64,000 bases of DNA from Zootoca vivipara (lineage: Eukaryota), in NCBI RefSeq assembly GCF_963506605.1, contig NC_083281.1, forward strand, positions 88,102,001 to 88,166,000, written 5' to 3'. Under the pieces are notes generated by a model, which was not told where the DNA came from, did not search any database, and worked only from the letters and a program-made list of their open reading frames with translations. Numbering within the stretch: position 1 is the first letter of the stretch; the number at the start of each line of letters is the position of its first letter. The translations under genes were made by a program, and so were the position numbers. Below are positions 4,137-53,185 of this stretch, in pieces.

Positions 4137-4935
4137 GCTTTTCTGATTTATACATTTCACTAATTTTACAATCATTTTAACATTTAAAAACTTGACTTCC
4201 TTCCCCCTCTTTCTGCAGTTCCTTAAATTTATTTTTAATATCTTCTGCATATCCAAATTACTGTATTGGCCTGAATATAAGCCTCCCTTTCCCCCCCCCC
4301 AAATTCTGATCGTGAAAAGTTAAAGTGTGGCTTAGATTCGCGACCTTGCAAAAATTGGCTTCTACGATAACACTGCTGAAACAGGGATATGGCAAAATGG
4401 AACGGGTGTGAGTGCCTGCAGAATTTTAAGGGAGCGGCCTATATTCGGGTATTGTCTTTTTTTTCCCCTCCTTGAATTTTAAAGGTGTGGCTTATATTTG
4501 GGTGCGGCTTATATTTGGGCCAATACGGTAACTTAATTTGCACATTTATTCTTCTACTTTAAATGCATACTCTTATGAAACTGCAGGTTATTACAATAAT
4601 CCTGCCAATATGCTTATCTGTTTACAATTTATCTGTAAATATTCAATAAACTATTGCCATTCTTTTATAAAAAGTTTGTTGCCTTGATTTCTTATTCTTC
4701 CTGTAGGTTCCGCCATTTCTGCGTTTTCCATAAGTTTTTGTATCCATTCTTCCTTTGCTCGGACTTCTTTCCATTTTGGGGTCAGTAACATTCTTGCCGC
4801 TGTAGTAGCATACATGAATAAGTTCCTGTACAGATTAGGTAGTTCTGCCACTATAATTCCCAAAAGAAAAGCTTCTGGGTTTTTGGTGGGTTTTTTTTTT
4901 TACAAAAGTTATTTTAAACAGCCTTTTCAATTCAT
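4088..4935 (-). mobile_element. L1-clade LINE 3' fragment with (AAT)n tail
   Basis: ORF 4651..4863 LFMYATTAAR.L...WK...EEW..KLME.AE is the squamate L1 ORF2 C-terminus; the (ATT)n run at 4088-4135 is its tail. Confidence 0.8.
4261..4528. mobile_element. Tc1/mariner (Tc2-like) MITE nested in L1
   Basis: TIRs CTGTATTGGCCTGAATATAAGCC / GGCTTATATTTGGGCCAATACGG; TA TSD at 4259-4260 and 4529-4530. Confidence 0.85.
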
Positions 4936-4939
4936 TATA

Positions 4940-5189
4940 CAGTCGTACCTTGAATCCCTGAACGCCTTGTGAGTCAGACGTTTTGGCTCCTGAACGCGGC
5001 AAACCAGGAAGTGAGTGTTCTGGTTTGCGAACACTCTTTCGAAAACGAACGTCCGACGCAGCTTCCACAGCATCCTATTGCGTGCAGGAAGCTCCTGCAG
5101 CCAATCGGAAGCTGTGTGTTGGTTGTTGAACATTTTGGAAGTCGAACAGACTTCTGGAACTGATTCCGTTCGACAACCAAGGTACAGTA
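4940..5189. mobile_element. Tigger/pogo-like MITE
   Basis: Termini TA-CAGTCGTACCTTG ... CAAGGTACAGTA-TA. Confidence 0.7.
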
Positions 5190-7198: not shown

Positions 7199-8174
7199 TG
7201 CTATAAGAATTTAAGGTCTCAAATATATAAATTAAATGCTCATAAATTAAAAGGCAAACACATACATAAGTATGTTTACCACATATCTGAAATACTGAAG
7301 TACAGGAGAACAATCCTGAAGCCATTTTGACTCTCCCAAATTGACCCCAAATATTTCTCTGCAAGGAGGAAGGTTAAACCACTGAGCCTAGGGCTTGCTG
7401 ATCAGAAGGTCAGCAGTTCAAATCCCTGTGACAGGGTGAGCTCCCGTTGCTTGGTCCCAGCTCCTGCCAACCTAGCAGTTCGAAAGCACGTCAAAGTGCA
7501 AGTAGATAAATAGGAACCGCTACAGCGGGAAGGTAAACGGCGTTTCCATGTGCTGCTCTGGTTTGCCAGAAGCGGCTTTGTCATGCTGGCCACATGACCT
7601 GGAAGCTATACGCCGGCTCCCTCGGCCAATAATGCGAGATGAGCGCGCAACCCCAGAGTCGGTCACGACTGGACCTAATGGTCAGGGGTCCCTTTACCTT
7701 TTTATGTATGAATAGGGAGAGCCTGTGACCGGGATTCAGGAACTATTTACCATCACAAAAGAATGGCCAGACTGTCCATGTAATGCAACCAGTGACCATT
7801 ATCAGGTATCTTGGCAAACAGGATTTCTGCCATAGACTGCCTTCTCTGCTGCAGACCTCCTCCTATGATGTGTTTTTTTTTGGGGGGGGTGGGGGTGGTC
7901 TCTGGCTACAGGGTAGGCAACTTCAAAAGTCTATATAAGGGCTTGCACACCATTGTTCTGGGTTCCTCCTCCCTCCTGCGTGTGGTGAGTGGGAACCCTG
8001 TTGCAACAGTTTTATAAAGATCAGGCTTACTAGCTGATTTGCTTCTCAATATTCTCTGGTTGGCCTCTGTTATTTTCTCCTACCGATAGGGAACCTACAT
8101 AAGGACTCTATACGGGCTCTTGGGTACCCCGTAAGGGAAAAGGAGCAGGGTTTTTTTCTTTCTTTCTTATAACA
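7199..8174 (+). mobile_element. Solo LTR, ERV1-like, related to the neighbouring provirus LTR
   Basis: Termini TGCTATAAGA...TCTTATAACA; 4-bp TSD GAAC at 7195-7198 and 8175-8178; shares blocks CCATTTTGACTCTC, CTCTGCAAGGA and ACCCTGTTGCAACAG with 8716-9425; TATA-like CTATATAAG at 7931. Confidence 0.88.
7372..7702 (+). mobile_element. Sauria SINE inserted in the solo LTR
   Basis: Body and CCTTTACCTTT tail; near-identical reverse complement of 130-425. Confidence 0.9.
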
Positions 8175-8715
8175 GAACAAAAATAAAACAAAAGCTAAAC
8201 AGAAAATGGGGGTGGGTGCAAGTACAAGGGACAGCACAGATCTGCAGGACAAAAAGGCAGAGAGGCAAAATGGATATGGTGGGACTTTAATCCATCACAA
8301 GGCTGTTGTTTGCTTCCTGCACAGCATCTTTTGTTTAAAGGAGCTGTAGCTGCTACCTACTGTGACTAAAATATTCCTTAGTGACTGAAAACGCACCCTT
8401 TCTCAAGCTCTCCCCACCCACTCACCCTCCCAACGCCAAATAATAGCATCTGCAGCTACTAAACACGAACCCATATTTACTTAGGTTTCACTTCGCCCAA
8501 GCTCATTTTAAATAGGTACCTTTTAGCGCAAGCAACAAAAAGTCTTTGTGGTATCATTAGCACAGACTGCTGACAAATCAGTCTTTAAATATCTGAAAGG
8601 CTGCAATAGGTTTGTTCTCTGTTTCTCCAGAGGGGCAGAGTCAATGGGTGGAAATTTCAGGGAAGCAGATTTTGGCTAAACGTTGGGAGGAGCTGCTCAA
8701 CAGTGGAAATGACTG

Positions 8716-9425
8716 TGTTATAAGAATTTTAAGGTCATATATATATATAATAATTGTTCATAAAACATGTACATGAATGTACAGAAACATGTCTGAAGCA
8801 GCACAGGAAAACAGGCCTGACTGACACCATTTTGACTCTCTCTGACCAGGTGTTCCTCTGCAAGGAAGAAGTGGGGTGGGGGGGAACCTTCTCATTGTCT
8901 CAGGAATTAAAGTGATAATCCCTGGCATCCTGATACCTGACTGCCAGACAAAAGGGTGTGATTAACTTGGCTGGGAAACAGGGAAATGTAAATATCTCTC
9001 AATTTTGTTGATTAGGTTCTGGGGGCAGGGGGCAGGGTCCAGGGTGCTCAGATTACTGCCACCAGACCTCCCCTTTCATGATGTACCTATGATGAATCTA
9101 GGGAGGGGGGGTCTTGGGCTACACCCCTTCTGTGACATATGGATGATGCTTCTGGGGGGTGGGCTGAAACCAATTTCAAATCTCTTTTTAAGGACAAGAC
9201 ATCTTTGTTTGGGGGTTCCTTCCTTGTTCTCCTGTGTGAGAGGAAGGACCCTGTTGCAACAGCAAAAATAAAAGTGCCTTGCTTCGCACGTCCTGGTTTG
9301 GTCTCTGTTATTTGGTGGGCAGGAGACGCTTAAACTTTGTCTGCTTGCCAGGATACCTGGACTCTTCCTGGGTCAAGGATCCACTTAATTCTAGGGCCGT
9401 GTAGCTCTGCAAAATTTTTACAACA
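8716..9425 (+). repeat. 5' LTR
   Basis: Identical by eye to 16196-16905; AATAAA near 9267. Confidence 0.95.
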
Positions 9426-9428
9426 GTT

Positions 9429-9446
9429 TGGCGACCACTTCGGGGA
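9429..9446 (+). other. Primer binding site, tRNA-Arg-like
   Basis: TGGCGACCACTTCGGGGA just after the LTR; the first 10 nt match the recalled tRNA-Arg PBS TGGCGACCACGAAGGGA, the rest is imperfect. Confidence 0.6.
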
Positions 9447-10354
9447 CCCAGTTTTGCCTTGAGCTCCGGGTTCACTGAGGAAGGGGAGCCCAGCGCGCCC
9501 TTGCCTCTTTTGCAGGGGGGTAAACCAACCTCAGGACCCGAGGCACTTGGTAGTAATTGAGAGTCCAAGCGGGACCCCCAGGACGAAGCAACGTTTAAAG
9601 GGACAAGGCTGTTTTTTTTTAGGAACCAGTTGGAAGCTGGAGACAACGGGATTCGACTGAAAGGATCGGTCGTGAGTATTAAAAGGGGACACCTTGGGTG
9701 AGCTAAGAACCACAGCAACTAAAAATCTATTTCTCCACTTGGACTATCCTTTTCTACTCTCCTCTTTGGACCTTAGTTGCAGCAAGGCTGCCAGGCACAG
9801 TTACAAGGTAGAACTGAGGTCCAGGGCAACAGTCTTTACGTTAAACGCAGAGCTCAGAAAGACTGTCCCAGCTCCCTTCTGCCAAACTGAGCAGAAGTCT
9901 GAGCAAACTGTCGCTTTTCTACCAATCTGGGAATCTGGCTATCCCAGCTCTGTTTCCTATTCCTCTGCTCTTAATCTTCGGGTGAAGACGCCCCCCTGCC
10001 ACGGCGACCCTTGTTGGGTAGGACCCGTGACCAGGGAATGCAAGTGCGCCTGTTCCTTTCCTAACTCTGTATTCCTCAGTTCCGACCTGACATTGTGAAG
10101 GCAAGCGTTCAGTAGGATCTGAGTCTAGTGTGTAAGAGGCAGGGAAGTTGCTGTGGAACCCTCAGGCAATTGATGACCAGTGGGAGGGTTCCAATAGGGT
10201 TTTAGCTGCACCAGGCCGCCTAGTAGTTAGTGCACGCGAACGGCAGGCAGGAACACCACTAGGACGTGGGGGTGAGTCATAGACTCGGGAAGTTAAGAGT
10301 GTCCAGGAACAGGGTCGGGGACCCAGAACTGCAGTATAAAAAGACAGAAGTAAA

Positions 10355-10680
10355 ATGGGTGCAACCCACTCTAAGGAATTCCTTTCCCAGACTCCCAACC
10401 GAGGCAAAGCACAACTGAGGCTTGGCTCCGGTAAGGACTTTGAGGATGAAAGTCCACTCCAATTCGTTCTCTTAAATTGGCATGAAATCCCCGGGGCGGA
10501 CAAGCTTGAAGGGAACCAATTGCAAAAACTTTGTAAGAAAAAAACATAGGGTCCGATTTACTATGGACCACCCAGATGAGGGGAAATGGCTACCAGGAGG
10601 TTCCTTTAACATACAGTGAATCTCCGCTTTAAAATTAACCCTGGTGAACTCTGAATGGGAAAAGTTTTGTGAGGAATCCT
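10355..10680 (+). pseudogene. gag: Degenerate gag matrix (MA) remnant
   Basis: MGATHS myristoylation-type start; SPLQFVLLNW...LQKLC, then after a homopolymer frameshift GKWLPGGSFN, resembling gamma/epsilon-retroviral MA; stops follow. Confidence 0.7.
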
Positions 10681-13600
10681 GCAAAGTATGTTATGGTATA
10701 AAATTATATATGTTTGCATGTTACATGTTGTCTGTGTTGTCTGTTACGTGTATGTGCGTCTGTTCCTTGTGTCTGCTATAGATAGTTGTTTCCCTTAAAG
10801 TAAATGAGAGATATAATCCAGGTTTAGGAAATTAGGGGTTTGTGTTTAAAATTTGGCCATGACACCCACAGACTGCCTTTTTTAAAGCATGCATAGTTTA
10901 AAATAATATAAAAATTAAGGCAAGCTTGCTTAAATAATCTTATGTAAGGGCTTGATCAACCCAAAAACATGGCAAATATTTAAAAGAGTGGAGGTAGTGT
11001 GTAAAGGTTTGTTTTAAAGAGGCTGTAGAAGGCCATTGTTTCCTCTCCAAAAGTAAAAAGAGGGGGCAGGATGAAGGAAAATAACGAGCTGTAAGTTTAA
11101 AAATGCTTGCTCAATGCTTTGAAAATATTTTAAACTTGAAAATGTTCATAAACTCCAGCTATAAGTGGATAAGAGATGTACTCAAGGTTTAGAATGTTAT
11201 GGGGTGTGTTTAAATTGGCTACAACATCCATAGACTGCCTTCTTAAGTGTGCATAGTTAAAACTGCCAACTTGTTTAAATTTCTAGTATAGAAACAATGT
11301 TGAACCGATCAATCTTAAACATTATAAATATGAGAATGAGGTGTGCAAATGTTTGTTATTGAGAGAGGCTCCAAAGGGGAGTCTTTCTCCAAGTGACTAG
11401 ATGAATATTGACTAAAGGAAAATTGAACAGCTATTCCAATAAAGGTGATTTGTTTGTCAAAGGTAGAGCTTCCATAGCCAGGAATTGTCTATCTGAGTCT
11501 AGTTTTAACTTCAATTGTGTTGGACAGAAGGGTTATTGTTGGGCTCCTAATATCAGTCTCTTAAGAAAAAAACAACTCATCTGCTCAAGGGTTCTGTATA
11601 AAGTTGGTATTTTCATTCAAATCTTGTGAATCCTGTATCTTAGAGGGTTAGACTAAATGACCTCAGGGTCCCTTCTAACCCCCATTTTAGAGCTATGTGA
11701 AAGGCAATGTGTCTGATGTGGTGATGGGTTGAAATTCAGCCCAGCTCTGCTTTCTGGCAAGGAAAGATTATTGGTTTTCAGAGTTGGAACAAGAGTGTAA
11801 TTGTTGTTTTTATGGAGTGATTATATAAGTTTTTATCACTTTCTCTATTAAGGTTTAAAGTTTAAGCACATATGAAAGTCTTCAACATTTCCCAATCTGT
11901 TTGTGAACTCACAATATTTAAGGTCTGTGTCACAAGGGAGCCATGTGCTCTGTATGTAATGTTTCACCATGTGACTATGGAATATGGTGTTCCTTCTAGG
12001 GAAATGTTATTAAAAGTAGAGGCTCCATAGCCAGCAAATGTCTATCTGAGTCACTTTAACCTTGATTCAAATGGACAGAATGGTTTTAGTAAGGAAGTAA
12101 ATTCCCTCTTAAACTGTTTATCCAATCTTAAGGTTTGCTAAAGACTTCTATATAACGTTGGTACTTTTAATCTTCCCCTTCCTTATTTTTCCCTTAGTAC
12201 ACACATGTGCTTCCGTGATAGGGCATAGCCTGTGTTTCCTTCCCAGTCAGGCGTCTGTACTCAAATGTATGTGTATCCTAAGGGCAGTGATAGTGTTGAG
12301 ATCCCCATATTTCAGAAGGGGGGGACTAGATTACTCAAGATCCCTTCCAACCCTTTCCAAACTTAGAAAAAGGAGGGAGAGAAAATGTGTTTGTAAGCAC
12401 TGAAAAGTGAGTTTAAACCCTGGTGGTATAGTGAAATGGCCTGAATTCAGTCAAGCATTACTCTTTGGTGGAGAAGGATGGAAAGATAGATTTTTAAAGT
12501 TTGGCATGAAGAGTTTGAGGTGCCATTCAGAAAGAGGTAGAGATGGTATATCATGCTTTGAAAATGAATGTCTGGTGTTATTTTTTCCACCATATTGTCA
12601 GCTATTTTTTTTAACTGCAAAACTCCAGCCAACAGTTCAAGTAAATAAAGGGCCAGAAAATTTTGTCTGGAATTGGTAAGGCTGAAAATCAATGAGAATG
12701 CAAAGGATTTTATGAATTCTGGCTCTATGGCCATATTACCCATAGATAAAGGGGCAGAGAATTTAGTCTGCCATGGCTGTAATAAATTAATTAAAAACAA
12801 ACAAACAAACGAAAACATTTGCAATTACGAATTCACCCCGAACCCTGTAGATAAAGGGGGCAAATCAAGATTTATTTTGCCTGGGGTATGAGATGTTTAT
12901 ATAGTACAGTAAACATGGCTAATTAGTGCCATGACTTCATTAAGGAGTTTAATTTGACCAAACTTTTCTTGCAGCTTTCTGGTAAAAATATTGGGTTGCC
13001 TGGATATTGAAGTTTTATATATTAAAAGTTTAAGATTTATAAGCCTGCTTCCTAAGCAGCAAGGAACAGGAAATAAGAGGTGTCAGAAATATCTCAGGAC
13101 ACAAAAGCTAAAGAAATGGATTTAAACTGACCAAAGAATTTAATTTCACCACTTTTGTTGCTGGTTTGGTGGAAGTGTAAATTGCTGGGTTTCTGTGTAA
13201 AATCTAACCCTATTTTAAAATCTACTCTTTCCCCTTCCCTTCCTTTATTCAGATGGTAATGTTGTCAAGAGGTACAGCACTTTAAAAAAAAAAAAAGGGT
13301 ATAATAGACTGCCGAATCATGAACTCTGTACATGCACAGAGGCTATGTCAGCTTGAAGAGGAAAATAGAGGAGAAAAAGGAGGTTTAAACTAAGGGGCGA
13401 AAAGGTTATAATCTGCTCATGAAATATTATTCAAATTTCTTAATGTAAAGCTTTGAACCACTGAGGGAAAACAACCTCATGTATGTTACTGGTCCATCAA
13501 AGTTAAATGGTTGCCAAGTTTCAAAATCTTAACATGCCAGATTCTTTCCACAGGTATAAATAGCAGAGTACTACTATAAGTCTGTCTCTTGAGTAGTTTA

Positions 13601-16195
13601 TAAATTAATTAAGAGGTTCAAGGTTATGCTTTGCACATGAAACTTAAATTTAAATTTCCTTATGTAAAAATAAATAAATAGATAAAGAACCATTGAGAAC
13701 CATCAACTGTTTAGAAGCTGCCAATTCCAGTTCAACATGCAAAACTCTGTACATTTTAGGAACATTTCCTGACTGATTTTCACATGAAATAATTTTCCCT
13801 TTCCAGCAGGATGCTGAGATTCAGGGTGCAGAAATTCTTTCAGGACCTTAATGCAAAATTATCTCCCAATGGGGGGGGGGGAGACGCCACCTAAACAAGC
13901 CCCCCCACACTTGGAAATTCATAGGAAATTGCGGTCTTCTCTTCATACTGCCCTGATGTGTACCTTTGGTCTGATCCAACCAGTTGACAGACTATGCAAA
14001 CAAAAGGCTCCATTTCTTTCCTAGCAGGTACTCAGGATGGATACTTATCTCTCATTTGCATTTCACCCCGAAGCATTACCCTATGTTAATATAACCCTCC
14101 CTTTTCTAATGTAGCAATGATTGAGTGTTTTGCCAATTCTTTTCTTCCACAGCAAAAAAAAAAAAGTGAGGAGTGAGGAGATACAAACAGTAATTTCATT
14201 TCTCTTTGGCGCTTCTCTTTAGCTTATAAATAATCTGCTTCCATTTATTATATCAGTTTTTCCATTATGTCTATGAAATTATTCTAACAATAACCAGGTA
14301 AAAATTGTTGTGTGAGTGGTAATCTAAATTTTATTATTTTATTTTTGTATCTTTTTTGGTATTTCTACTTTTTCTTTCTGTACATACAAATGTAGCATCT
14401 AAGTCATTCTTTCCTGTAAATAATAATAATATTAATCCCTTTCAAACAAGATACGTGAACCTCAAAGAGAATTCAGAACCACATAAGGAAAATGTTAATA
14501 ACTTATCGATTGGGTCCTAATTAACAAAATTTTTGTCCTTTGTTTCCTCCACAGCCAAACTAGGTGAAGTAAATTAAACAGACTGAGTAGACAATAACAG
14601 CAGTAATTAAATATGAATGATAATAATAATATTTAAATGAATAAAATGCCTAACTATGATCTTATATTATTTGCAGCTTCCCAAGAAGAAATTTCTAGAA
14701 TATTCTCCCCTTTCTTGACTATTTATTATTATTATTTTTAACTAATTATATCTTCAGGCCCCAACCCCCTGCAGGCCTATTTTCAAAAGGATGTGTATCA
14801 TTTACAGCTTCCCGACAATTTTTTTAGAAATACTGTAGGATATTCTCCCCTTTTGTTTTCCCACTCCTTCCTTCCTACGTAACTGTCTTTTAGTTCCAAG
14901 CACTCCTGTCCCTCTGCAGACTGTATTTCTGAAGACTGAATAATGAACCTACAGCAGCTGAACAGCATGAGAAAGCCCACAGCCATTGTTTCCATAAATG
15001 ACTTTTTTGGGACTTTTTGGGACTTAAGGGAGGGGGGAGAAAGGGGGGAACTATTGTTGAAAAGTTTTAAGGATTTTGACTATAAGACTGTTTCTTATCT
15101 GCAACAACAACAGACATCAGATTTTCCAAAGTAGCCACAGCATCTTCAAAATCTCCTTCCAAAAGAAACAGACTGAAGAGGGGCAAGGGAAAGTGAATTG
15201 CAAGGACATACGCTCTCTTTTGACTTCAAGACTCTGTGCCTATTAAGAATTGGCCTCAAGACATACAACTGATATAAATTATTATGTTTTATGTTGTGTG
15301 ATATTCGACAGAAACATTGAACTATGTCTGACAGTATGTTATTTCCACAAGGAGGGGGGGGTGAACCAATTTTGTGTTTAATTGTTTTTTAATGTTTAAT
15401 GTATAGTGTCCCAATGTTTTTTTTTGTATTATTGCCATGCATTGTATGCCTTTTAAAGGATCAGGATATTGCATAGTCCAGTATTTAGATTAGATCAAAT
15501 TATGACCACATTTTCTTGTCCCACCTGGCACTCTGCAGTGTGCCAGCCTTCTTACACAATTTTAGATTGTTTTAAATCATTTTACCAAGAATAAGCCCCA
15601 AGATCCATGAAACACCAGATAAATGAAGGTATTTATGTCTTGATTTAACAGGAATGATCCCTTTTAGAGTTAAATTTGACTAATTTGGACATGTTTTATT
15701 GGGCTGTATAAATTTTAATTTGGCTTCAGTTCTAATTGGGCAAGTGTATCCAAGGTGCAAGTAGCTTTCTTCCTTTAAGAGCAACTGGGCAACTCCCTAC
15801 AGTGCAAGGCCAGAGCCTATAATAATAAAGGCCCATAGGAAGCCCAAGGCAAAGGCATCTCTCTCATGACATGTCCAAACCTGTGGCAGCTATGGGGGGT
15901 GCCAGGCGACATGGTCAATATGAAAGCCCTAAGGGGATTCACCAGGGATTGTTGCTGTTGTGCCACGATGGAGGTGTGCAACCAGAGGAGAGCTAGCTTT
16001 TGACACCTGAAGAACACACAAAAGGGTAAACAAACAAACTGCACTTTCCAGTCAATATTGGTGGACCATCCTGTTAAATGAAATACGTACACCATTTTTG
16101 AGAAATGCTTCTCCCAAAGTACTAAAACAACACATCTGGTTATTCTTTTGTGGGGCAACAATTTTTAAGAAAAATTATAGCCCCAAATGGGGAAT

Positions 16196-16905
16196 TGTTA
16201 TAAGAATTTTAAGGTCATATATATATATAATAATTGTTCATAAAACATGTACATGAATGTACAGAAACATGTCTGAAGCAGCACAGGAAAACAGGCCTGA
16301 CTGACACCATTTTGACTCTCTCTGACCAGGTGTTCCTCTGCAAGGAAGAAGTGGGGTGGGGGGGAACCTTCTCATTGTCTCAGGAATTAAAGTGATAATC
16401 CCTGGCATCCTGATACCTGACTGCCAGACAAAAGGGTGTGATTAACTTGGCTGGGAAACAGGGAAATGTAAATATCTCTCAATTTTGTTGATTAGGTTCT
16501 GGGGGCAGGGGGCAGGGTCCAGGGTGCTCAGATTACTGCCACCAGACCTCCCCTTTCATGATGTACCTATGATGAATCTAGGGAGGGGGGGTCTTGGGCT
16601 ACACCCCTTCTGTGACATATGGATGATGCTTCTGGGGGGTGGGCTGAAACCAATTTCAAATCTCTTTTTAAGGACAAGACATCTTTGTTTGGGGGTTCCT
16701 TCCTTGTTCTCCTGTGTGAGAGGAAGGACCCTGTTGCAACAGCAAAAATAAAAGTGCCTTGCTTCGCACGTCCTGGTTTGGTCTCTGTTATTTGGTGGGC
16801 AGGAGACGCTTAAACTTTGTCTGCTTGCCAGGATACCTGGACTCTTCCTGGGTCAAGGATCCACTTAATTCTAGGGCCGTGTAGCTCTGCAAAATTTTTA
16901 CAACA
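16196..16905 (+). repeat. 3' LTR
   Basis: Identical to 8716-9425 at offset 7480; duplicated ORF-track entries 9005/16485 and 9139/16619. Confidence 0.95.
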
Positions 16906-17043
16906 ACTGCTTTGAGAGGCGATGAGCTCTCCTTCACTGGAGGTATTGAAGCAAAGGTTCGGCATCCATAAGTAAAGGATGTTGTGATTACACCCCACTT
17001 CAAGCAGGTGTCTGACTAGATGATCCCCAGGGATCCTCTCAAC

Positions 17044-18599: not shown

Positions 18600-19986
18600 C
18601 TTGGTCTCTTTCGGGAGCCCCTGCATGCCAGGCTATAAGCAGAGGAAAAGGCAGGAGTGTGTGAAATGGCAACAGCTGTGAGAAGCAGGGTTTAAATGGA
18701 CCACCGCAGCCCCTGGTGAGCAAATCAAGCTAGGGATTGCTTTTGCGTGATCTGACAGGGGAACAAAAGGAGGGGCTGGCAAGCTTATTGCAAAAGAGTC
18801 CCATCCTGGTATAAGTGTGTTTTTTTCCCTAAACGGGCAGCTTAACTTTTGCCCTCCTTCATGCCGGCTTTTGCAGACGCTGTCTGCACATCGCTCAGTT
18901 TCCATGGGAATGATGGGAGACGGATGGAGCGATGCAAGCATCCTGTCTTGGGCAATCTAACTGAACGCCTCGGGAATCTGGAACCACCCCCTGAGGCTGG
19001 CAGTTTTGAAATGAATGCAAGATGGGTCTAAGCAAAGCCAGCCAAATGGGGAAAAGAGCGCTGACAGACACTCGGCTGCTGGGCCGTTGACTGAGGGTGG
19101 TGCCATGCCTTCAGGCTCACATCGGCACCATACATTTACAACGCACCTTCCTATTTTCCTATTTGTATCTCTTGCAGCCAAAACCACAACTCTAGTCCGT
19201 GAAACTTCAAAGCATAATGCATTGAATGGCCTTTGAAGGTGCACACAAGGTTCTGTGTTGCTTCAGGAAGAACACGTTGCTGCTGCTGTCAGTGGAGACA
19301 TACTCCAACTGACCTAGCAGTTAGATGGTGTGATTTTGTTTCCATCTGATCCCTCTTAGCTCTTTTTCTTTTCATTGCTTTCTTTTCCACAAAACCATTT
19401 TTCTTTTTTCTCTCTGTTGCCCCCTTCTTCCTCCACCACTTCCCCCGACATTCCTTGAGGTCTCATGAGGCCCTAAGCTACTGAAGGTAATGGGGCCCTT
19501 TATATGTCCAGCTGTCCCACCTCTACAATGGATCGCGGGGAGGCTGCAAAGGAGGCCTTCTTCCCCTGAGGGTTCTGTCGCTGAAATGGCCAGCAGGAAG
19601 GGTAGCATACAAATTTAAGAAATTTGAGATATTAAGAAATCCCCACCTGCCATTCCCTGGGCATTAAAGCACCAGAACCTTCTCATATTGGAGCTCTCAC
19701 GGGGGTGAGAGGTTATGCGAACCCTGTTAGGATGTTGGAGGCAAAGCTCCATGAGGAAGAGAAGCAGAATTTATTGTTATTTCTATTTCCTATCAGGGAA
19801 TCCCTTGACTGGGCCAGTCCAGCCGCCTTCAGACCTTGGCCCTTGTCTGTGGGGCAACGCAGAGGCCTTGCAGTCACTTGCTCCCAGGAAAGGGGGTGTC
19901 AGGTCTTCTGTCTGCTCCTTGGGGTCTCCTGCTCTCAGCTGAGTCTGCATCACAAGGCAGGACAGGCTTCTGAAGCCTGCCTTGTG

Positions 19987-20060
19987 ATTGGCTGCCTAGT
20001 GCAAAGCAGCCAATCCTGCCCTCGGTGGGTGTCGCCAGGGGCGGGCGGAAATGTATATAA
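19987..20060 (+). promoter_or_regulatory. Putative Pol II promoter module (ATTGG, CCAAT, GC box, TATA)
   Basis: ATTGG 19987, CCAAT 20010, GGGGCGGGCGG 20038 and TATATAA 20054 in canonical order; motif inference only. Confidence 0.45.
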
Positions 20061-20833
20061 GCCCTGTTTTGCCAGTCTGCTCCGGAGGCCTCAAGGAAGC
20101 CTGGAGGCTGAATGGCTGCCTTAGCTCTTGCTTAAACTCACCTCTCTTCCCTCAGGGCTCAGGGGGAGGCCCTTTGTGAGGGCAAGGGGCCCTTGGAGCC
20201 AGGCTCCCTATTCTCCATAAACACCCACCCAGCCCATCCTGGAACCTAGTGTAGGATAACACGGTTGCAACTGAGCCCCTCAAGTGAGCCTGTGCGTTTG
20301 CCAGGCACTGCCTGGTGCTGCTGCCTGTGGGGCCCAGATAAGCCCCCCCCCAGGGGAATCTGAGAGGGGCTTGAGCCCCACAGCCCCCATGAAGTTGGGC
20401 ATGAAGGCCTACAGGGTCAGTTGCTGCATCTCTGTCCAAGAAGAGCTGGGGGTGGGGAAGGGCAGCTTGGCCCCAGCAGGACAGGACAGGACAGGACTTG
20501 CCTGGGGACATCTCAGGCCTCTCCTTGGGCCTTGGGGAAGGGGCTCTTCCTCTGCCTTCTTCCTCCACATCCCTTCCATTGGGTGTCTTGTCTTTGGACT
20601 TTCCAAACCTGAGGAAAGGACTTGTCTCACCTTCTTTTAAATCGATGTCAGCTGCTTTAGGAGACAACAAGAGTCTGCAAAGCAGGATAAAAACAAGAGG
20701 AAATGTATGAAACTGTACATTTCAAAGAACAGATATATCAGCCTTGAGTTGCATGGCATTAACATTGTTCTAACCACTAGGCCACACGGACTCTCCTAGA
20801 ACACTGGCACTGAGGCCGGGCATTCCACGTTCT

Positions 20834-20954: not shown

Positions 20955-22534
20955 ATGGCGTCCCAAAGACTCCTGGAGGTAAGGGGAGGTTGCCATGGCC
21001 AGGGGACTTAACTCTGGAACCTAGATTAATGGTCTCACCAAGTTTGGCAAAGAGTCAAAGAAAGGGTTGAGCTTTGCCCAGGTTTTTGGAAGGGGAGAAA
21101 GAAGGAATGCCAAAAAGGAAAATTCAGTGTCCTATATTGCAGTCGATAGAAGATTATTTTGAACAAAGGATTCCTTCTGATTTATGTACATGGGAATCTG
21201 GGAGAAGCTTCATTTCTATTTCCACATGCTGGATGTTATCTTTGTACTATAGTTTGGAGGGAAAGGGAAAAACAGAAGGAGACATGAGAGCGTGAGCGGC
21301 TGGCCCAGTGGAGGGGAAGGGGGTGACGGATGGATCTGTTTTTTCTGCAGAGGCAGGGAGCCCTGCTGCCCACCTGTCCACAGAGTCCATTGCAGGAAAG
21401 GGCTGCTCCCAGGTGCAGGTGAGGGAGAGACAGGAGGCCTGGCGGAGCTCTATTCCTGGAGGAAGGACGGGTGAGAAACAGCGCCATGAGCTCTGCTGAG
21501 ACAGGCCAGCTCCCTCAGGCCTCCTCTCCCCCAACTGTCATCGGGCGGCAGCCATTTCATCAGGCTGTCTCAGTGGGAAAGATGAGAACAGCATTCTAGA
21601 CATTGGGGCCTGAGCTTGTGAGTTGTCTTTTCCTCTGCCCTCCTTGACCCCTTTCCTTGTGTACTGTATTTCTGTTGGTTAGATTGTTTGTTACAATAGA
21701 AGTCTGCCATTAGGGGGTTTCTTGCATTTGATTTCATGGAAGGCTCTCTTGGAGCCTTTTTGGCTTAAGAGAGGGGTACAAATGCTCTAAATCAGGGGTG
21801 GCCAACTTCCAAGACACTGTGATCTACCTGATAGAGTTAAAAACTGTCAGTGATCTACCCCCTTTTGGGGGATTCAGGTCAAAGTGTTGTTGAGCTTTTT
21901 TTAGGAAAGCCCTGTTTTGGGGGTTGCAGGCCAACATTATTGAACTTTTTTTAGGGGAGCCAACAAAGTTGTTGAGCTTGTTTGTGAGAAGCCAGTGATC
22001 TACCAGTAATCTACCACAAACATCAAGTGATCTACCGCTAAATCACAATCTACCTGTTGGATGTACCTACTCTAAATTAATGGATGGATGAATAAGGTCT
22101 CTAAGGAAATGGAGGACAGAGATTTTTAGTTTGTTTCCCAACCTACCACGTCTGCGCTTTCCTGATCAACACAAAAACATGAGTGGGTCTGATCCACTCC
22201 TCACATTCGGACGTTCCTGTTTCTCTTTTCTCATGGACAGGGAATTGATTTCGATGAGGATCAAATATCGGAAATCAGCCTAGAAGATGGGGAGGATCTT
22301 CCTCCAAGGTAATGCTATGCTAAACCCCCTCCCCCATAATCAATTGCTTTCAAAAGCCCCCCCCCCGTCCAATTCTATGGTGGTGGTGCTTGGGGTCTTT
22401 AAAGGAGGGGAGGCAATAAAACCTTTTTACACAAGTGCTACTCCTCTCTCCTCTCAGCATCCCAACCACAGGTTCTCCGGATACGGCTGATGTTCCTCTT
22501 GAAGGCTTCAGCGAGGACCAGCTGAAGGCCAGAC
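20955..22534 (+). other. Putative ancestral 5' coding exons of MROH-like copy 1 (20955-20978, 22241-22308, 22458-), now out of frame
   Basis: aagATGG MASQRLLE|gtaagg; GIDFDEDQISEISLEDGEDLPP|gt; phases are compatible using the 175-bp exon of copy 2, but that exon is 173 bp in copy 1. Confidence 0.5.
21793..22069. mobile_element. hAT MITE (GATCTAC-repeat family)
   Basis: CAGGGGTGGCCAAC ... GTTGGATGTACCTA; 8-bp TSD CTCTAAAT (21785-21792, 22070-22077). Confidence 0.88.
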
Positions 22535-25500
22535 ATGGATGTCGTCACCACGATGAAGAGCGGGAAGAAGATGGTCCGAAGGGAGGCGCTCCGAGATCTT
22601 TCCGCCCTCCTGCAGAAGATCCGGGAATATGTGAGTTTCTGAAGCAAAGCATTGCAACCATGCAGGGCTGTCAAGGCCTTCAGGCTGCCCCTTCTAGCCC
22701 CACCCTTCTCTTATCAGTTGCTTCTCTGGGTTTCTTCTCAGCCATCGGTATCGCTTCCTGCATCCTCCCTTGGCCAACTGGTGGCTATTTCCTGTCTGTG
22801 TGCCTTGGATCCAGACCCGGAGTGCAGGCAGCGGGCAGCAGAGGCTCTCTGCCATCTTCTGCCCATCCTGCGGCGTAAAGAAGGTAAGACTGAAAGAATG
22901 CATCCCAGAATGGGGTGGGGTGAGCAAGACCCCAACTAACCCTTTGGCTTTCCTTTGCAGAGACGCTGGCACGAACATCAAGGAACCCAACACTCATCAC
23001 CAGAGCTCAGAAGTTCCTCAATTCCACCGGAGGACCGGTTCCTGAATTGTTCGTCAACGACTGCTACTCTCTTGCCAGGGTAAGTCGCTGTCACACAAGG
23101 CACAGCGGTCTCTCAAGCCACATCTTCTGGGTTCCGCAGAGAAAGCACCTGGGCTTTCTGCTCCCCAGCCCTGCCCTGTGGGCACCTCTGACTTTCCTCT
23201 CTTGCTTCAGGTATTTGGCGCCTTTCTCCCTGCGGAGCAACTCTTGGAAGCCATGTCCTTCCTGGCCAGCAACCTGGTTCTTGAGAGCAGATTCCACCCC
23301 TTGGACATCTCCCACCTACTGCAAGAGTTCATCAAGCAGTTTAGCGGCAAAGCAGTGGAGGTAAGGTGTCTGCAAAGGTAGGAGAGAAGAAGAATCTCCA
23401 CCTTGATGTAGGGGAGGCAACCTCATGCCATTGAGTGGCCAGGACACATGTTTGTTGGGAGGGGCCTGGCAATGTCAGGACCAGAAGCGCAGCCAAGGGT
23501 CCTGAGAAACATGGGTTCAGGAATGGGGAACCCTCCTTCTGGGAGCAGCCTGGCAAGCTTCTTCTCTTGGCCCACAATGGAAAGGGAACTGGTTCCCTGC
23601 AGCTGCCTGGGTCCAATACTCCCAAGGACCCTGAGTGGTACCTTTGAAGGAAGATGGCTGTGGTGGCACAGGTCAAGGGTCCCTCTTTCTATGAGGGATG
23701 GAGGGATCCGCCTGCAGGCAGCCCCGCTTCCTTGTACTCTCCCAGCAACCTTCTCTTTTTCTCTGACAGGTGGAGGTGCTGCTGGAGGCCTTCTATAAGA
23801 TCACCCAGGGGCCTACAGTGGAGGGCAGAAACATGGCCATCTTTGCGTTCTCCATCTTGACACACCAGCATCTGAACAAAGTGGTTGAATACCTCCTCCA
23901 GTTTCCCTTCAGGTATGGAGCCCTCCAGGTTCTACTGGGCTAAGGGAAAGGTTGGCAAGCTGCAGGACTTGCTCAGAAAGCCCTTCCTGACATTTCCTCT
24001 CTCTGGGGCATGGCACCAAGCACAACACTGGAATCTGACCATTGCTCTTGTTTTTGCATTCACAGAGACTGCGAGAGAGTATGGAAGGAGGTTTTGACAT
24101 CGGCCGACCAAGAACAACTGCTCCATCTCATGGCCGAGCAGCTTTACCAAAGCCCCTTGGCGGAATCTGCCACCCAAGTGGTAAGGACGAACCACCTGCT
24201 TTCTGGCTTCCTTCTTCCCAGGGGAATATCGAGGGGTTTCTGTATTCTGCAGAAAAGCAGGGAAAGTGACTTGCACCTCTCTCTCTTCCAGCAACATCTC
24301 AGCAGCCTGTTGCACGCCATCCTCAGGATGGAGGAATACAAGGCAGCTGTGCGCCAGAACTTCCCACAGCTGCTGATCGCTCTCCTGGGGATGGTTGTCA
24401 ACTTCCACTATGACCAGGAATTCCTCGAGTGAGTAGCGTGTTGCAAAGGGGCCAATGGAGTCCTTTTCCCTTCAACCTCGGGGGGGGGGGGTGTTTTCCA
24501 GTCCAACTTGGTATTCTAAGGGAGCCTCTCCTTCAGGCGGCTGCTAGGGAGGCAGGATGCGGAAGGAATTTGAGTGGGTGGCAATGACCCTCCTGGTAAA
24601 ACTGGCCTTGCTTTTGTTACAGAGGGGCTAAGGAAGTTCTGCACCTCCTTCTCAGCACCACTGGAGAGCAAGTTGAGGCGGCCATCATTGACCAACTTTT
24701 CTGCCGGGACAATTTCAACCAGGGGTTGTCTGCCATGGTGAGGTAAGAGGAAGAACACGGTGACTTTCCCCAATGGTTTGGCAAACAGAGCTGAAGGCAC
24801 GGGATCGGACTGTGCCCCTGTTTGCTTCCTGCAGTGTCTTTCCCTTCCTTACCCACACCTGGTTCTCCATTTCAGAGCTGTCGGAAAGCGACGTTGGTGG
24901 ATCCGTCCCATGGTGGAAAATATCACCGCTGCTCTCGGGGACCAGGAGTTTGCCGGAATGCCAGAAGTAGCGGCAGCTATCTACATCGAGGTGAGGGGGA
25001 CTGACGCGGGAGGAAATGGGTGCAGCAAGGAGGCCCTGGCTTGGTTTCTGCCGAGTGTTGGGCTTTGTGTTCTTCGGCTCCCTTTGTGTCCTCCATTAGA
25101 ATTTGAACCTTGCAGCTGCCTTTACCTTCCATATTCTGTGGCTTTCCTCAAGGCTTCTTTGAGCCGAAGGAATGTTGCCTGTTTTAGTGCTCCTCAGAGT
25201 AGACCCAGTGGATTTGATGTACATGACGAACTTTGGTCCATTCCCTTCAGTGGCTTTGCTCTGTGCAGAACTACAGGTGGTAGATAAAAGGAGAACCTGC
25301 CTCAACCTCTCATCACTGAAGACTTTCTTTCTCTTTGGGCCTCTTTAGCTGCTCAGCTGCCGTCTGCAGGTTCCCTGTCAGGATACATTGGAGCAGCTCC
25401 ACACCTGGCTGTCACATGACCACCTGCAAGTCCAGAAGCTCAGCGCCAGAGGGATATCCCTGATTCTGGACTCTGACATGGCAAGTGATGCTCAGAGGGG

Positions 25501-27658
25501 GGAGGGGGGAGGGGGGTACAGATCCCGTTTCTAATCATGGGCCAGCACTCTTTTGCTGGCAGAATCCTGAAGGGCCTGTGAAACGAAAAAGTGTGGGGCC
25601 TAACAGACCTTTGAAAAGATTCTCTCTTTTGTGTAGGACCCTTCGCTTCTGCGGCTGTCGCTGCCGGATTTCTTCCCTGATGCAGAAGCTGATGTCTTCC
25701 CACAGATGTTAGAGCTAGTAGACCAAGCCTACATGAAGATGCTGGCGGCAACCTACTGTGATATGGCTTCACATGTGAGTATTAGGGAACACAGGACATC
25801 GCCCAGGGTGGAGGAGGAAGGGTGGTGTTTAGCCTGGCATGCAGCAGAGATCTTCTGGCTTCAGGAGCGTGTTCCTTCCTCTGGAGCACCTTCTCTTGGA
25901 AGCCTGCCTGGAAAACCCAGGGGGAGAGTCACCCCTGCCCCCAGTCTCCCCCAGGAGGAGGATAGGGGGCTGAGCAGCCTCAAAACACCTCGGTGGACAG
26001 GAGAAAGGAAACTGATCAGATGAGAAACACAACCTCTGATCTTTTCTGCCTACAGGAGGAAGCCTCCGTCCGGGCAGCAGCCATCCAATATCTGGGGCTG
26101 CTTCGGGGCTGGGCGAGAGACCAAAGGCTTCCCATAACAACAACTAAAGAAGAAGCCATTAATGAACTGGTCGTCGTCCTCATTCACCTCGAAGACGAGG
26201 ACGAGGTGGCCAAGGTGAGGGCCAAGGAGGTGGACTCACGCACGCAGTAGGAGGGAGGGATTGTTCTCAGGAGCTTCCGGGATTTTTTTTACGACAATTT
26301 GTAACCCTCTTCTCTTCTTGTGTTGCAGGCCGCAAGGAGGGCTCTTTCCCATCTAGCCCCACAAGTCAAGTGGTGGGCACATCCCAACAAATTTAGCCTC
26401 CACTTTGCTCTCCACCAGGCCGCCAAGCATCTGGTAAGGTCCCTCTGCTTCGTTGGCAGCTTTGCCCAGGGATGTCTTTGGGGGTGACGGGCTCTTGTGC
26501 CACACTCTCAAGCCTCTCTGATGCCACCTCTCCTTTGTCTTTGCCAACAGAGCAAGACCTTCAGCAAGAACATCCTTCGGAGTGCTGCCTTGGCATGTAC
26601 GAAGCCATCTGCCAACAGGCTGCCAGCAGTCTCCAGGGTAGCAGCTCTGCTTCTGGGTAAGTCAAGCAACGTCCTTCCCTGGTAGGAATGGACAGAAACG
26701 TTTTGGTAACAATGGCAGGGAGGATGGGCATGTCCCCAGGCCACCTGCTAGGTAGGGCTCCATCTGCGCCCAGATCTTGCTCTGAGTGCTCCCGAGAGGG
26801 TGGAGGCCCTCTGTCTCCGCTTGCTTTGCACCGAGATGACGTCCCTTTTCTTGCCTTGTCTCTCTAGGTCATCTGGCTTTCCGGGATGCCGGTTTCATCC
26901 ACAGTCAAGACATGGCATCCTACGGCACATGTAAGTGAGACATACAGAGGGCTGGGAGGGATGCTTCTGCTGAGAAAGGGCTTCAGGGGAAGGCAGGTTC
27001 CCAGGTGTATGTGCAGACAGAGGTGCCACAAGATGGACATGCAAAGAGAATTGGAATGTGACTTCATTGCTCTCTCTCACACACACAAATATTTCCCTGC
27101 CCCACACCCTGGTCCTGGGAGGAGCTCCGGTGGGGGTGCTTTGCAAGTTTTTGCCTTGTGAAAAGCTGATTCCTCCTCCCCAAGGGGAACCGCCACTGCT
27201 TGTGTCCTGGTTGGGGTAGATACCCTGTGGACTCCTGCATCCGCCCCTACAACCAGCGCACCTCCCCTGGCCCGATTGCTGGGGCCACCTGATGGCTGTC
27301 TTAATATTTTTGATGGATGGCTCTTTTCCTGTGCATCTCCGCCTTGCTCAACCTTTCTCCCTTGCCACTCAGGGCTGGAAGAGATGCAGCAGTACGAGGA
27401 AGAAGGGCTCAGGCGGACAGGGAGGAGCTGCCTGAACATCATGCAGCGGGCCTATAAACATCGGCAGAAAGGCAGGGTCCGGCGCCTTGTGAGGAGGCTG
27501 CTCTGCTGTATTCACAGGGAACCTTACCCGCAGGACTTCCTGAGCTGCATGCCAGGTGAGTGAGGCACCTGGTGGGCTATTTGGGCATCTGGTGGGCTGT
27601 TTGGAGGTGACATTTCTCAAGGAGCCCCTTTCTCCTCCTGACAGAACTTCCGCAGTAG
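22535..27658 (+). CDS. Maestro HEAT-like repeat (MROH-family) protein, copy 1; 17 coding exons, ~678 aa
   Basis: Exons 22535-22630, 22742-22883, 22961-23079, 23211-23360, 23770-23912, 24066-24180, 24292-24428, 24623-24742, 24876-24990, 25349-25480 (GC donor), 25637-25774, 26056-26214, 26329-26433, 26551-26656, 26868-26930, 27373-27555 and 27645-27658 total 2037 nt, all phases compatible, no internal stop. Motifs LDPDPECRQRAAEAL, FPQLLIALL, VQKLSARGI, VRAAAIQYLG and LVVVLIHLED..VAKAA resemble MROH HEAT repeats. Confidence 0.75.
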
Positions 27659-28625
27659 CGCCAGGCCAAGGCAACGTGAACATCAGAGTTGTGCTGCAGA
27701 GATACCGTCTTCTGCTCTCCGTGGGATCCAGCCTGGATCAGCGCCAGGAACATCAAGGCCATCAGGATCGACCAAGAGGAGTGGTGCTGCCCTCACGGCC
27801 CTCCTTACATAGCGGTAGGAAACCTTTTGTTGTTGTTGTCTTTTTTGTTGATGTTGGTTTTGACTGTTGATGTTAACTAGTCCACGATCTGGTCGATCTT
27901 TCCTTTCTTGTTTTCCCTTTGTTGGGGGTCCCGCCCCCAGGACAGGCAGGCTTTATGGAGCTCCCCCAGTCCAGGGTCCGGTTCCTTGCAGGACTCTCTG
28001 CCGTCCTCTCAAGTCCTCCCCAGCAGCAACTTTCTTCCATTTCTTTGCTTATTCGCCAACAGCAGGGATTGTTAGGGGCGGGGGCAATAAGAGGGTCTAA
28101 CATTCATGAGATTTCGTACCCTTTCTAACAGAATCTCTTTTCTCTCTTTCCTGCATGGAACAAAACCGCGATGGGAAACGGCGGCCTATCTGCTGGAGCC
28201 TGGGAGGAGACGTCCGGATAAAAGAAGAATGTCATCAGCCGCGAAAGAAGCCGCCCTGAAGACGACACCTGCAACATCGACCCTCCAGCTGGCAGTGAAT
28301 TTCAGGACTGGACACTTTCTATTGACTCTTTCGGGACTTAAAACAGCAAGCGGGACTTTCTTTAGTAAGATAGGTTGAAATGGATGTATAGAATAGGATA
28401 GGCAAAACAGGGAGCATTCAAGGTTACGAGATAGTGTTTTGTATATTATTTTTGTTCCTTCTTTCTTTGTTCTCCCCCCCCACTTCCCCCCTTTGTATCA
28501 CTTGATTTCTTTATAATTGTAATTCTCTTATTAAAAATATTTTTAAAAGGGTAAATACGGATCTTATGGTTTTTGTTAAAATGTGCAAAAATATCATTTT
28601 GTCAAAAATGAATAAATAATATTTT

Positions 28626-29755: not shown

Positions 29756-32105
29756 AGAGCATTTGTACCCCTCTCTTAAGCCAAAAAGGCTCCAAGAGGG
29801 CCTTCCATGAAATCAAATGCAAGAAACTCCCTAATGGCAGACTTCTATTGTAATAAACAATCTGACCAACAGAAATACAACACACAAGGAAAGGGGGCAA
29901 GGAGGGCAGAGGAAAAGACAACTCACAAGCTCAGGCCCCAATGTTTGGAAAGCACCCATTGGAGTCGGCACTCCTGGAAACCACCCGATGCGGGCACGGG
30001 TCCCATAACTTGGAATTTTAATTAGATAAAAGTTTTCGGCATGCCTCAGATAAAGGAGCAAAAAAATTATTGCCTGCGGACTCAGCCCTGAGCAGTAGAA
30101 AAAAAGACTTGATTTACGGCCAATAAGAGGTAAGAGGTGGAAACATCGGAGAAAGGAAGATGGATTATCTGGAGAAACCGAGAAGCCTGACAGGGAAGTG
30201 GAACCCCCCCCCCTTTTCTTCTTCTTCTTCTTCTCTTAAACATAATACTCAACACCTTTTCTGGACGGCTATCGGAATTACCTAGAGCAGCGGGAAAATA
30301 GAAAATACCAAACTGTGTGGACATGGAAATATAAACAATATAAAAATGGAGGCTTTATATATGCTTTGATGATTTTGTAAAAGTCTCCCTGACAGCTGGT
30401 ACTCGTTGGGATTCGTCGTGGACTGATTTAGAAGATTTAAGACTTGTGTCGCAGTTAGAAATTGAGAAAACACAAAATGGCCCCAAAACGGAGAGCAGCT
30501 AGAGGCGGGGAAGAAGCCATTGTTTGTTTTTAGAAGAACGATAAGATTTGACCTGGCTAATTCCTCGCTGGAAAAGCTGTAAATCTGTTTTCGGAGAAGC
30601 TATGGAGTAGAAATTTGGACATGATTTGTGCTTTGTGTGCTTTGTTGGGCTTGGAAGACCAGCGATCAGAGGGAGACTTAAAGCCACACGATAGAAAAAT
30701 TTTCGGTAAAACCTGGCTGGCACCATAACTCAGAGGCTTGGAGAAGATTGAAGGATGTCAACAAAGACTGTTAGGAAAGGACTGTATTATTTTGGGACAA
30801 TATTGAAGGTTTACATTTCAGGCTGAATAACAAGGGAGAAATTATTAAAAGCAAAAGGCAGTAGTGATTAGTAGGAAGCTCTGGAATCTGAGGCATGGTG
30901 AGTGGGAAAAAATTAATATAATTGGGCATAATTGGAATGTTTCCTTTAATTGGAATTGTATAATTAATTTGGAAAAAGTGTAATTGGGAATAATTTCAAT
31001 GTAATTCGATGTTGTTTAATTGGAAAATCTAATAAAAATCATTTAAAAAATGGAAAGTCCAAAGACAAGACACCCAATGGAAGGGATGTGGAGGAAGAAG
31101 GCAGAGGAAGAGCCCCTTTCCCAAGGAGAGGCCTGAGATGTCCCCAGGCAAGTCCTGTCCTGTCCTGTCCTGCTGGGGCCAAGCTCCCCTTCCCCACCCC
31201 CAGCTCTTCTTGGACAGAGATGCAGCAACTGATCCTGTAGGCCTTCATGCCCAACTTCATGGGGGCTGTGGGGCTCAAGCCCCTCTCAGATTCCCCTGGG
31301 GGGGGGCTTATCTGGGCCCCACAGGCAGCACCAGGCAGTGCCTGGCAAACACACAGGCTCACTTGAGGGGCTCAGTTGCAACTGCCTTATCCTACACTAG
31401 GTTCCAGCATGGGCTGGGTGGGTGTTTATGGAGAATAGGGAGCCTGGCTCCAAAGGCCCCTTGTCCTCACAAAGGGCCTCCCCCTGAGCCCTGAGGGAAG
31501 AGAGGTGAGTTTAAGCAAGAGCCAAGGCAGCCATTCAGCCTCTAGGCTTCCTTGAGGCCTCCAGAGCAGACTGGCGAAACAGGGCTTATATACACTTCCG
31601 CACGCCCCTGGCGACACCCACCGAGGGCAGGATTGGCTGCTTTCCACTAGGCAGCCAATCACAAGGCAGGCTTCAGAAGCGGACTCAGCGGAGAGCAGGA
31701 GACCCCAAGGAGCAGACAGAAGACCTGACACCCCCCCTTTCCTGGGAGCAAGCGACTGCAAGGCCTCTGCGTTGCCCCACAGACAAGGGCCAAGGTCTGA
31801 AGGCGGCTGGACTGGATCAGTCAAGGGCCTCCCAGATAGGAAATAGAAATAACAATAAATTCCGCTTCTCTTCCTCATGGAGCTTTGCCTCCAACATCCT
31901 AACGGGGTTCGCATAACCTCTCACCCCCCCCCCCGAGAGCTCCAATATGGGAAGGTTCTGGTGCTTTAATGCCCAGGGAATGGCAGGTGGGCATGAGGAT
32001 TTCTTAAATTTGTATGATACCCTTCATGCTGGCCATTTCAGGGACAGAACCCTCAAGGGAAGAAGGCCTCCTTTGCAGCCTCCCCGCGATCCATTGTAGA
32101 GGTGG
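29756..32105 (-). repeat. Right (inverted) arm; lacks the equivalent of 20611-21599 and carries a retro-insertion
   Basis: Direct alignment to the left arm; includes mirrored TTATATA 31586-31592 and CCAAT boxes 31632-31659. Confidence 0.9.
29953..31050 (+). mobile_element. Short L1-like non-autonomous retroelement
   Basis: CpG-containing 5' part, AT-rich 3' end with AATAAA and A tail, 7-bp TSD TGGAAAG (29946-29952, 31051-31057). Confidence 0.6.
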
Positions 32106-53129: not shown

Positions 53130-53185
53130 AGGCCATATATATTGTTAAAACCCAAAGGCCTGATTAAAAAGGAATGTTTTTGCAT
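53076..53185. repeat. Perfect palindrome, 54-bp arms with 2-nt loop
   Basis: 53076-53129 is the exact reverse complement of 53132-53185. Confidence 0.97.

Follow-up and report, generated by a model that had tools for sequence, protein, structure and literature searches.

The window, a stretch of 64,000 nt of Zootoca vivipara DNA, contains at 8716-16905 an insertion with the organisation of an endogenous retrovirus (ERV) (Table 1). Paired long terminal repeats (LTRs) with TG...CA ends lie between two copies of a 4-nt target-site duplication (TSD), ACTG, and are accompanied by a primer-binding site (PBS), which pairs perfectly with a tRNA over 10 nt, and by a short polypurine tract (PPT), as in a provirus. 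Pairwise alignment of the two 710-nt LTRs found no differences, and the match stops at both LTR borders, with no extension on either side. The interior comprises 6770 nt, and its longest stop-free stretch in all six frames is 140 codons. An earlier, sequence-only reading of this DNA had described identical 710-bp LTRs, an intact TSD and an interior of ~6.8 kb with only a broken gag stub; each of these was borne out, the stub at 10355-10670 being real. The same reading had called the PBS and PPT intact; both are present, but the PBS is mismatched after 10 nt and the PPT is short.

Table 1. Features of the insertion, in positions of the window
Feature	Positions	Strand	Basis or remark
Target-site duplication, left copy, ACTG	8712..8715	+	direct repeat
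5' LTR, 710 nt, equal to the 3' LTR	8716..9425	+	alignment
Family-specific U3, probably with the 5' part of R	8716..9270	+	U3/R border inferred
AATAAA polyadenylation signal (LTR position 552)	9267..9272	+	sequence
End of R and U5, 93-94% to coding lineage I	9271..9425	+	alignment
PBS for tRNA-Arg(TCG), mismatched past 10 nt; the variant of most coding copies	9429..9447	+	
Leader, mosaic; presumed packaging region	9448..10354	+	role inferred from position
Broken gag 5' stub, ~100 codons, frameshifted and stopped	10355..10670	+	
Non-coding body, multi-copy, 36% G+C, CpG observed/expected 0.14	10671..16184	+	
Old internal duplication, 10798-11082 versus 11163-11423, 64%	10798..11423	+	
Old internal duplication, 11454-11618 versus 12007-12172, 67%	11454..12172	+	
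Short polypurine tract, 9 purines in 10 nt, one base ahead of the 3' LTR	16185..16194	+	
3' LTR	16196..16905	+	alignment
Target-site duplication, right copy, ACTG	16906..16909	+	single copy in empty allele

The U3 of this LTR is unrelated to that of coding lineage I, described below, except for its terminal 9 nt, and its global identity to eight coding copies is 50-55% over the part compared. The block that is common to the element and the coding family starts at LTR position 556, i.e. at the AATAAA signal. In a genome pattern search, tracts related to the PPT precede an LTR start at 135 sites.

One letter, at 8731 in the 5' copy, is common to the two LTRs of the element but absent from every other LTR aligned, and the nearest other copy lies three substitutions away. 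A letter private to both LTRs of one element is expected from the copying of one RNA, which argues against collapse onto another copy. Contigs from three of four sequencing runs match 8686-8740 without any differing letter.

In the region 8200-8740, runs X2 and X3 each yielded one contig that enters the LTR and one that leaves the window sequence at 8715; the contigs of the latter kind continue as 16910-16939 and represent an empty site with a single ACTG. The common contig of X3 has a depth of 39 and its branches depths of 23 and 29. X5 gave the filled junction, with no empty-site contig among those listed, and the X8 contig ends at 8715 plus 42 further letters; these two runs both stand outside the empty-site count. 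The suggestion that the insertion is polymorphic is thus supported by filled and empty contigs in two of the four runs, with a junction overlap of 30 flank-side letters (one below the bridging threshold; 30 of 164 loose letters visible), both runs coming from one study that possibly includes the source of the assembly. The insertion at 8716-16905 is very recent and, from these contigs, apparently absent from some chromosomes.

The non-coding family

A genome search with the LTR returned 1735 first-look candidates, a figure that is not a copy number, with 41 listed matches at 99-100%. A 1.5-kb interior query gave 341 candidates, and the 39 long matches among those listed, at 89-100%, supply the interior copies that the sequence-only reading had proposed to look for and establish that the family is multi-copy. 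At least 74 non-coding copies are present in the genome, this being the number of the 85 loci examined that have a parsable non-coding leader; the remaining 11 are omitted from the scoring of heads described below. Two LTRs could be compared in 45 copies, a count that omits nine loci without a parsed LTR pair. No substitution separates the LTRs in 37 of these, the 45 pairs have 14 substitutions in total (0.044%), and a matching 4-nt TSD flanks 40. Taking 1-2 x 10^-9 substitutions per site and year, the insertions of the family would average roughly 0.1-0.2 million years in age. The preponderance of LTR pairs without a substitution agrees with the earlier claim of a recently active family, and the lack of coding capacity, combined with many independent recent insertions, is characteristic of a non-autonomous ERV.

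Interiors of different subtypes diverge locally by as much as about 10-16%. Near-identical LTRs around interiors that differ to this degree imply that the non-coding state is much older than any insertion. The proposal that decay predates this insertion therefore holds as regards the non-coding state, decay from viral genes being a possible origin of that state.

It is highly improbable that the copies stem from segmental duplication or that the identity of their LTRs is an assembly artefact. Other large duplications do occur in the window, but the family is spread over many contigs, its copies having different flanks and their own TSDs; private letters are present in both LTRs of 11 of the 45 copies, and an empty allele was seen.

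In a run from a second organism, 0.53 of the words of the interior are present, with contigs such as one of 576 nt with three differing letters; the family therefore occurs under more than one species label. No RNA run with the family is on record among the indexed runs. In two raw RNA runs with the same species label, of each of which about 6% was read, reads fall in 28 and 29 of 30 bins, and the unique flank bin has an RNA depth of 0. The minus strand predominates among first mates in 17 (one run) and 22 (the other) of the 23 interior bins; with the usual stranded protocols such reads derive from sense RNA. In one run, 59 reads bridge the end of the interior and the beginning of the LTR. Since letters of other subtypes occur in them, the reads attest expression of the family and are not assignable to the 8716-16905 locus, and they may include read-through from host genes.

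Several loci depart from the usual arrangement. Copies L066, L080, L097, L100 and L149 are internally shortened, with interiors of ~2.2-3.9 kb and 0-4 LTR differences; L012 has three LTRs with an 11-nt spacer, L090 has two LTRs ~120 nt apart, and in L003 the 3' LTR is followed by a PBS-like start.

Coding lineages and mosaic heads

A search of the genome for Gag_p30 produced at least 100 matches in several young groups, including a subgroup with 643-codon open frames ~1.8 kb past the same pattern of LTR end plus PBS. The 20 coding copies that were fetched contain gag (643 codons), one TGA, an in-frame pol (1268 codons) and env (~688), with gag open in 18, pol open in 16 and all three frames open in 12. 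The domains of this partner (Gag_p30, one zf-CCHC, MLVIN_C and TLV_coat) are of gamma type, as are its closest solved structures, the top PDB matches being p80 reverse transcriptases (E 1e-163). By these domains and matches the partner is gamma-like and belongs to class I (ERV1), an assignment made at class level, and on the partner since the element itself has only a gag stub. In the partner and related lineages (L021-L040, L102-L121), gag ends in TGA, in frame with pol, and in L114-L116 it ends in TAG.

The LTRs of the partner are ~1451 nt long and show 0-1 differences in all ten pairs, and the partner is accordingly as young as the non-coding family. Common to the element and coding lineage I are the first 9 nt and the last ~155 nt (93-94%) of the LTR, the PBS and parts of the leader, while the U3, the body and the sequence ahead of the 3' LTR are unrelated between the element and the coding family. 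A coeval coding partner with shared cis-signals is therefore present, although the expectation of coding proviruses with the same LTR and PBS held only in part: the PBS variant is the same, but the LTR is common only at its two ends. Among 20 further PPT-plus-LTR sites that were fetched, sampled from 100 listed of the 135, no coding provirus with the element's U3 was found, 13 being two-LTR non-coding copies.

The head of the 8716-16905 copy is composite. Over the U5 and the 250 nt that begin at the PBS it is 92-98% identical to lineage I (98% for the 250 nt), its mid-leader is 92-93% identical to lineage II versus 68% to most lineage I copies, and the last 160 nt of the leader are 93-96% identical to both lineages alike. 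The gag stub matches the first ~100 Gag residues of the coding copies, in two frames, with 54-60% to lineage I Gag (E 5e-27) and 70-74% to lineage III Gag, and is closer to other lineages (76-81%) than to lineage I (71%). The affinities of the mid-leader with lineage II and of the stub with other lineages speak against a single helper.

A similar patchwork extends across the family. Among the 74 scored non-coding copies, 49 have a lineage-I U5 end and about 22-23 a lineage-III U5 end, two carry a lineage-III leader plus gag stub, and one is a further mosaic; five copies compared with the window copy are 97-99% identical to it in U3 and 84-100% identical in pieces of the body. On these alignments, a single non-coding body occurs under three main types of head, which are assembled from pieces of different coding lineages. 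Each copy was also painted along the leader, i.e. scored as matching either the window copy or a coding copy. One of the 20 coding copies has a non-coding-type leader over 9541-10255; conversely, 53 non-coding copies include six with a coding-type patch at ~9981-10145, two with a partial patch and one with a ~600-nt coding-type leader at 9541-10145 (98% vs 70%). As judged from this painting, leader pieces have moved both ways between non-coding and coding copies. Recombination during reverse transcription occurs between co-packaged RNAs, according to the available part of one account (PMC6894440), and mosaics of this kind thus point to co-packaging, whilst short patches could also arise from DNA-level gene conversion.

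These observations lead to the following model, to which a probability of about 0.87 is given. The insertion is taken to be a new member of a multi-copy non-coding LTR family. Proteins of a coexisting gamma-like ERV likely carry out the packaging, reverse transcription and integration of this family, whose U5-PBS-leader head has likely been exchanged with coding lineages by recombination, and more than once, which would keep the two compatible. A non-coding RNA would be made from the element's own U3 promoter and would be packed by the Gag of the coding family through binding to the shared leader. Priming at the mismatched PBS would then fall to tRNA-Arg(TCG), the mosaics would result from template switches among RNAs packaged together, and the helper integrase would recognise the shared LTR ends, leaving the 4-nt duplication. 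The non-coding family would on this model depend on a helper and be mobilised in trans; the earlier proposal of a helper-dependent family stands as supported, a likely helper having been identified by sequence.

A second model, considered unlikely, accepts that the element is non-autonomous but holds that it is packaged promiscuously, like VL30, so that the sharing of leader sequence is a by-product of recombination or gene conversion and is unneeded for the choice of helper. In its favour, the heads are a patchwork of three lineages with no match to one, and VL30, in the available part of its description, varies in its PBSs and yielded no packaging motif that is conserved (PMC4859993). However, the 250-nt lineage-I block starting at the PBS is kept in 72 of the 74 scored copies, while U3 and body are unshared, and exchange is thus confined to U5, PBS and leader.

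A distant coding family (L102-L104), whose Gag start is 32% identical, shares only a 180-nt leader block, 9979-10159, at 85%. This is the same spot as the patch swapped in six non-coding copies, and is a candidate packaging or dimer module.

The primer-binding site

The PBS at 9429-9447 pairs for 10 nt with the 3' end of tRNA-Arg(TCG), after which three bases are replaced by four. A genome pattern covering both possible tRNA ends found one tRNA gene, that of tRNA-Arg(TCG). A tRNA gene fitting the variant PBS was rejected as an explanation, since the single site that the pattern search gave is of the ordinary type, although such a gene may exist in diverged or unassembled form.

Nine of 82 PBS sites match the tRNA at 18/18, and the other 73, in non-coding and coding copies alike, carry the mismatched variant. 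In a neighbour test that omits three copies, six of the eight tRNA-perfect copies scored have a nearest copy with a mismatched PBS, two of them at 0 substitutions, and the remaining two are each other's nearest. Perfect copies scattered in this manner match what tRNA-primed copying predicts. In the portions of the sources available, perfect and variant sites are expected at 50:50 in each copying round (PMC4549124, PMC7472051). The tRNA-perfect share of 11% is far below this, and either selection against perfect-PBS sources or biased copying fits the deficit. The same PBS pattern is described in ETn, MusD and IAP, where, in the available part of the account, escape from tRNA-fragment silencing has been proposed (PMC7472051).

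A wider scenario can be put forward tentatively, its chances being somewhat short of even. An old gene-less passenger would outlive its helpers by grafting on the U5-PBS-leader of whichever ERV lineage is active, returning leader sequence to it, and passenger and helpers would retain the mismatched tRNA-Arg PBS against reversion because perfect-site copies are silenced by tRNA fragments or by a DNA-binding repressor. The system would still be moving in a living reptile population.

The body, known systems and neighbouring sequence

The 5.5-kb body looks old but is not recognisable as a decayed set of viral genes. The ratio of observed to expected CpG rises from 0.11 for the LTR and 0.14 for the body to 0.49 for the leader and 0.54-0.62 for coding genes, a profile in keeping with a newer head on an old body. 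Searches by tblastn with the partner's proteins found no pol or env trace in the body, the gag stub alone has no Pfam match, and an Rfam search gave no credible RNA family, its one weak match (E 0.19) lying far below the gathering score. As to a host origin, a comparison with 672 kb of non-family sequence gave only two weak matches of the body, at 11642-11679 (38 and 34 nt; E 0.003-0.01), and the 40 candidates scored in genome searches were all family copies; this stretch and both flanks presumably resemble the 3' end of CR1, for which a collinearity test on the fetched loci gave no support. Large parts of the body are missing from several copies whose LTRs are nearly identical, which suggests that it is partly dispensable, post-insertion deletion being possible.

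It has to be considered whether the body is the gag-pol-env region of an older retrovirus, decayed beyond detection, an origin that would be compatible with mobilisation in trans. The provirus-like length of the element (8.2 kb) and the retention of the gag stub are in its favour, as is the long non-coding history indicated by CpG depletion (0.14 vs 0.62 in coding pol) and by internal duplications of 64-67% identity. However, none of 77 natural open reading frames of fetched ERV loci matches the body at E<=0.05, the one match, a chance one, being on the reversed control; six frames read through stops have no Pfam family at E<=1; and G+C is 36% in the body versus 48-51% in coding genes. Such an origin is consequently regarded as rather doubtful.

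Well-studied helper-dependent ERVs come mostly from mouse and koala. Among plants, LARDs are large retrotransposon derivatives with a long non-coding interior of conserved secondary structure, and LTR swapping in soybean was reportedly described by Du et al. in 2010. Neither this family nor any passenger/helper pair of a reptile was the subject of a paper found in the literature searched; the family may be catalogued in subscription papers or repeat databases, which lay outside the search. The comparisons that follow draw on the available portions of the papers cited.

As in ETn/MusD of the mouse, a non-coding LTR element outnumbers its coding partner, is polymorphic and shares its primer tRNA with that partner (PMC6466679, PMC7472051), and the most frequent PBS is a mismatched one, while perfect ones turn up at scattered places in the tree (PMC7472051). 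ETn and MusD are of class II, however, and related by identical LTRs (PMC6466679), whereas the lizard partner is gamma-like and keeps env, common sequence in the lizard pair is limited to U5, PBS and leader, and heads of several lineages are found on the body. The element is not an ETn, its U3 being unrelated, its LTR 710 versus ~1451 nt in the partner, its primer tRNA-Arg rather than tRNA-Lys and its partner of class I. The VL30/MLV pair is closer in being class I, and VL30 is likewise non-autonomous and polymorphic, with a 4-nt TSD; it has 86 full-length copies and is co-packaged with a gamma-retrovirus (PMC4859993, PMC6466679). VL30 retains regions related to gag and pol, though riddled with stops, and is primed by Gly, Pro or Gln tRNAs (PMC4859993), in contrast to the gag stub alone and the Arg primer found here, and the lizard element, unlike VL30, has cis blocks nearly identical to those of its likely helper. 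By the description of VL30, the lack of a pol trace and the Arg PBS set the element apart from it.

In the non-autonomous group of mouse ERV-beta4, as in the lizard element, the LTR and terminal internal parts resemble a coding element and the middle lacks retroviral homology; the group has 15-20 copies and is of class II, with serial head exchange not mentioned in the portion of the source available (PMC6466679). In recKoRV (KoRV x PhER), a young coding gamma-retrovirus recombined with an older degraded retroelement to give defective, multi-copy, polymorphic elements, but reciprocal recombinants are absent as described there (PMC6112702), whereas in the lizard exchange is seen in either direction and the non-coding element retains a U3 of its own. 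Grass pararetroviruses also have an autonomous/non-autonomous partnership kept by region-specific recombination of non-coding regulatory sequence (PMC5491270). The head exchange of the lizard family bears a resemblance to recKoRV and to the soybean and grass cases. The soybean and grass elements are, however, plant elements and not vertebrate retroviruses, and the module swapped in the lizard is the U5-PBS-leader. By analogy, the mode of life of the lizard family is that of ETn/MusD or VL30, modular head exchange being its less usual part.

Present together in the lizard genome are a passenger family that is young and polymorphic, the helper that it likely uses, and recombinants of the two. 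The exchanged blocks would map which cis-sequences a passenger must share with its helper, a question that is testable from population sequence, and otherwise identical copies that differ only in the PBS would allow the priming-versus-silencing trade-off proposed for the mouse, in the available part of that work (PMC7472051), to be tested outside mammals. Young polymorphic insertions are, in addition, population markers and a source of new mutations.

The window contains several further features. A segment at 7199-7372, 1.3 kb upstream of the element, matches the first 156 nt of the LTR at 67% and is probably a remnant of an older related LTR, and 4859-4972, on the minus strand, matches an open reading frame at the env position of ERV locus L110 and is probably a further ERV remnant. 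A short repeat at 7400-7701, which we take to resemble a squamate SINE, is of very high copy number and highly transcribed. Beyond the element lie a direct duplication of ~6.5 kb (21935-28423 / 40567-47526, 93-96% identity) and an inverted repeat of ~1.1 kb (19517-20605 / 31051-32105, 92%), which has a further pair of inverted arms at 21591-21788 / 29756-29953. At 53076-53185 lies a perfect inverted repeat, its 54-nt arms separated by 2 nt, and at 38757-39656, on the plus strand, a stop-free frame of 300 codons.
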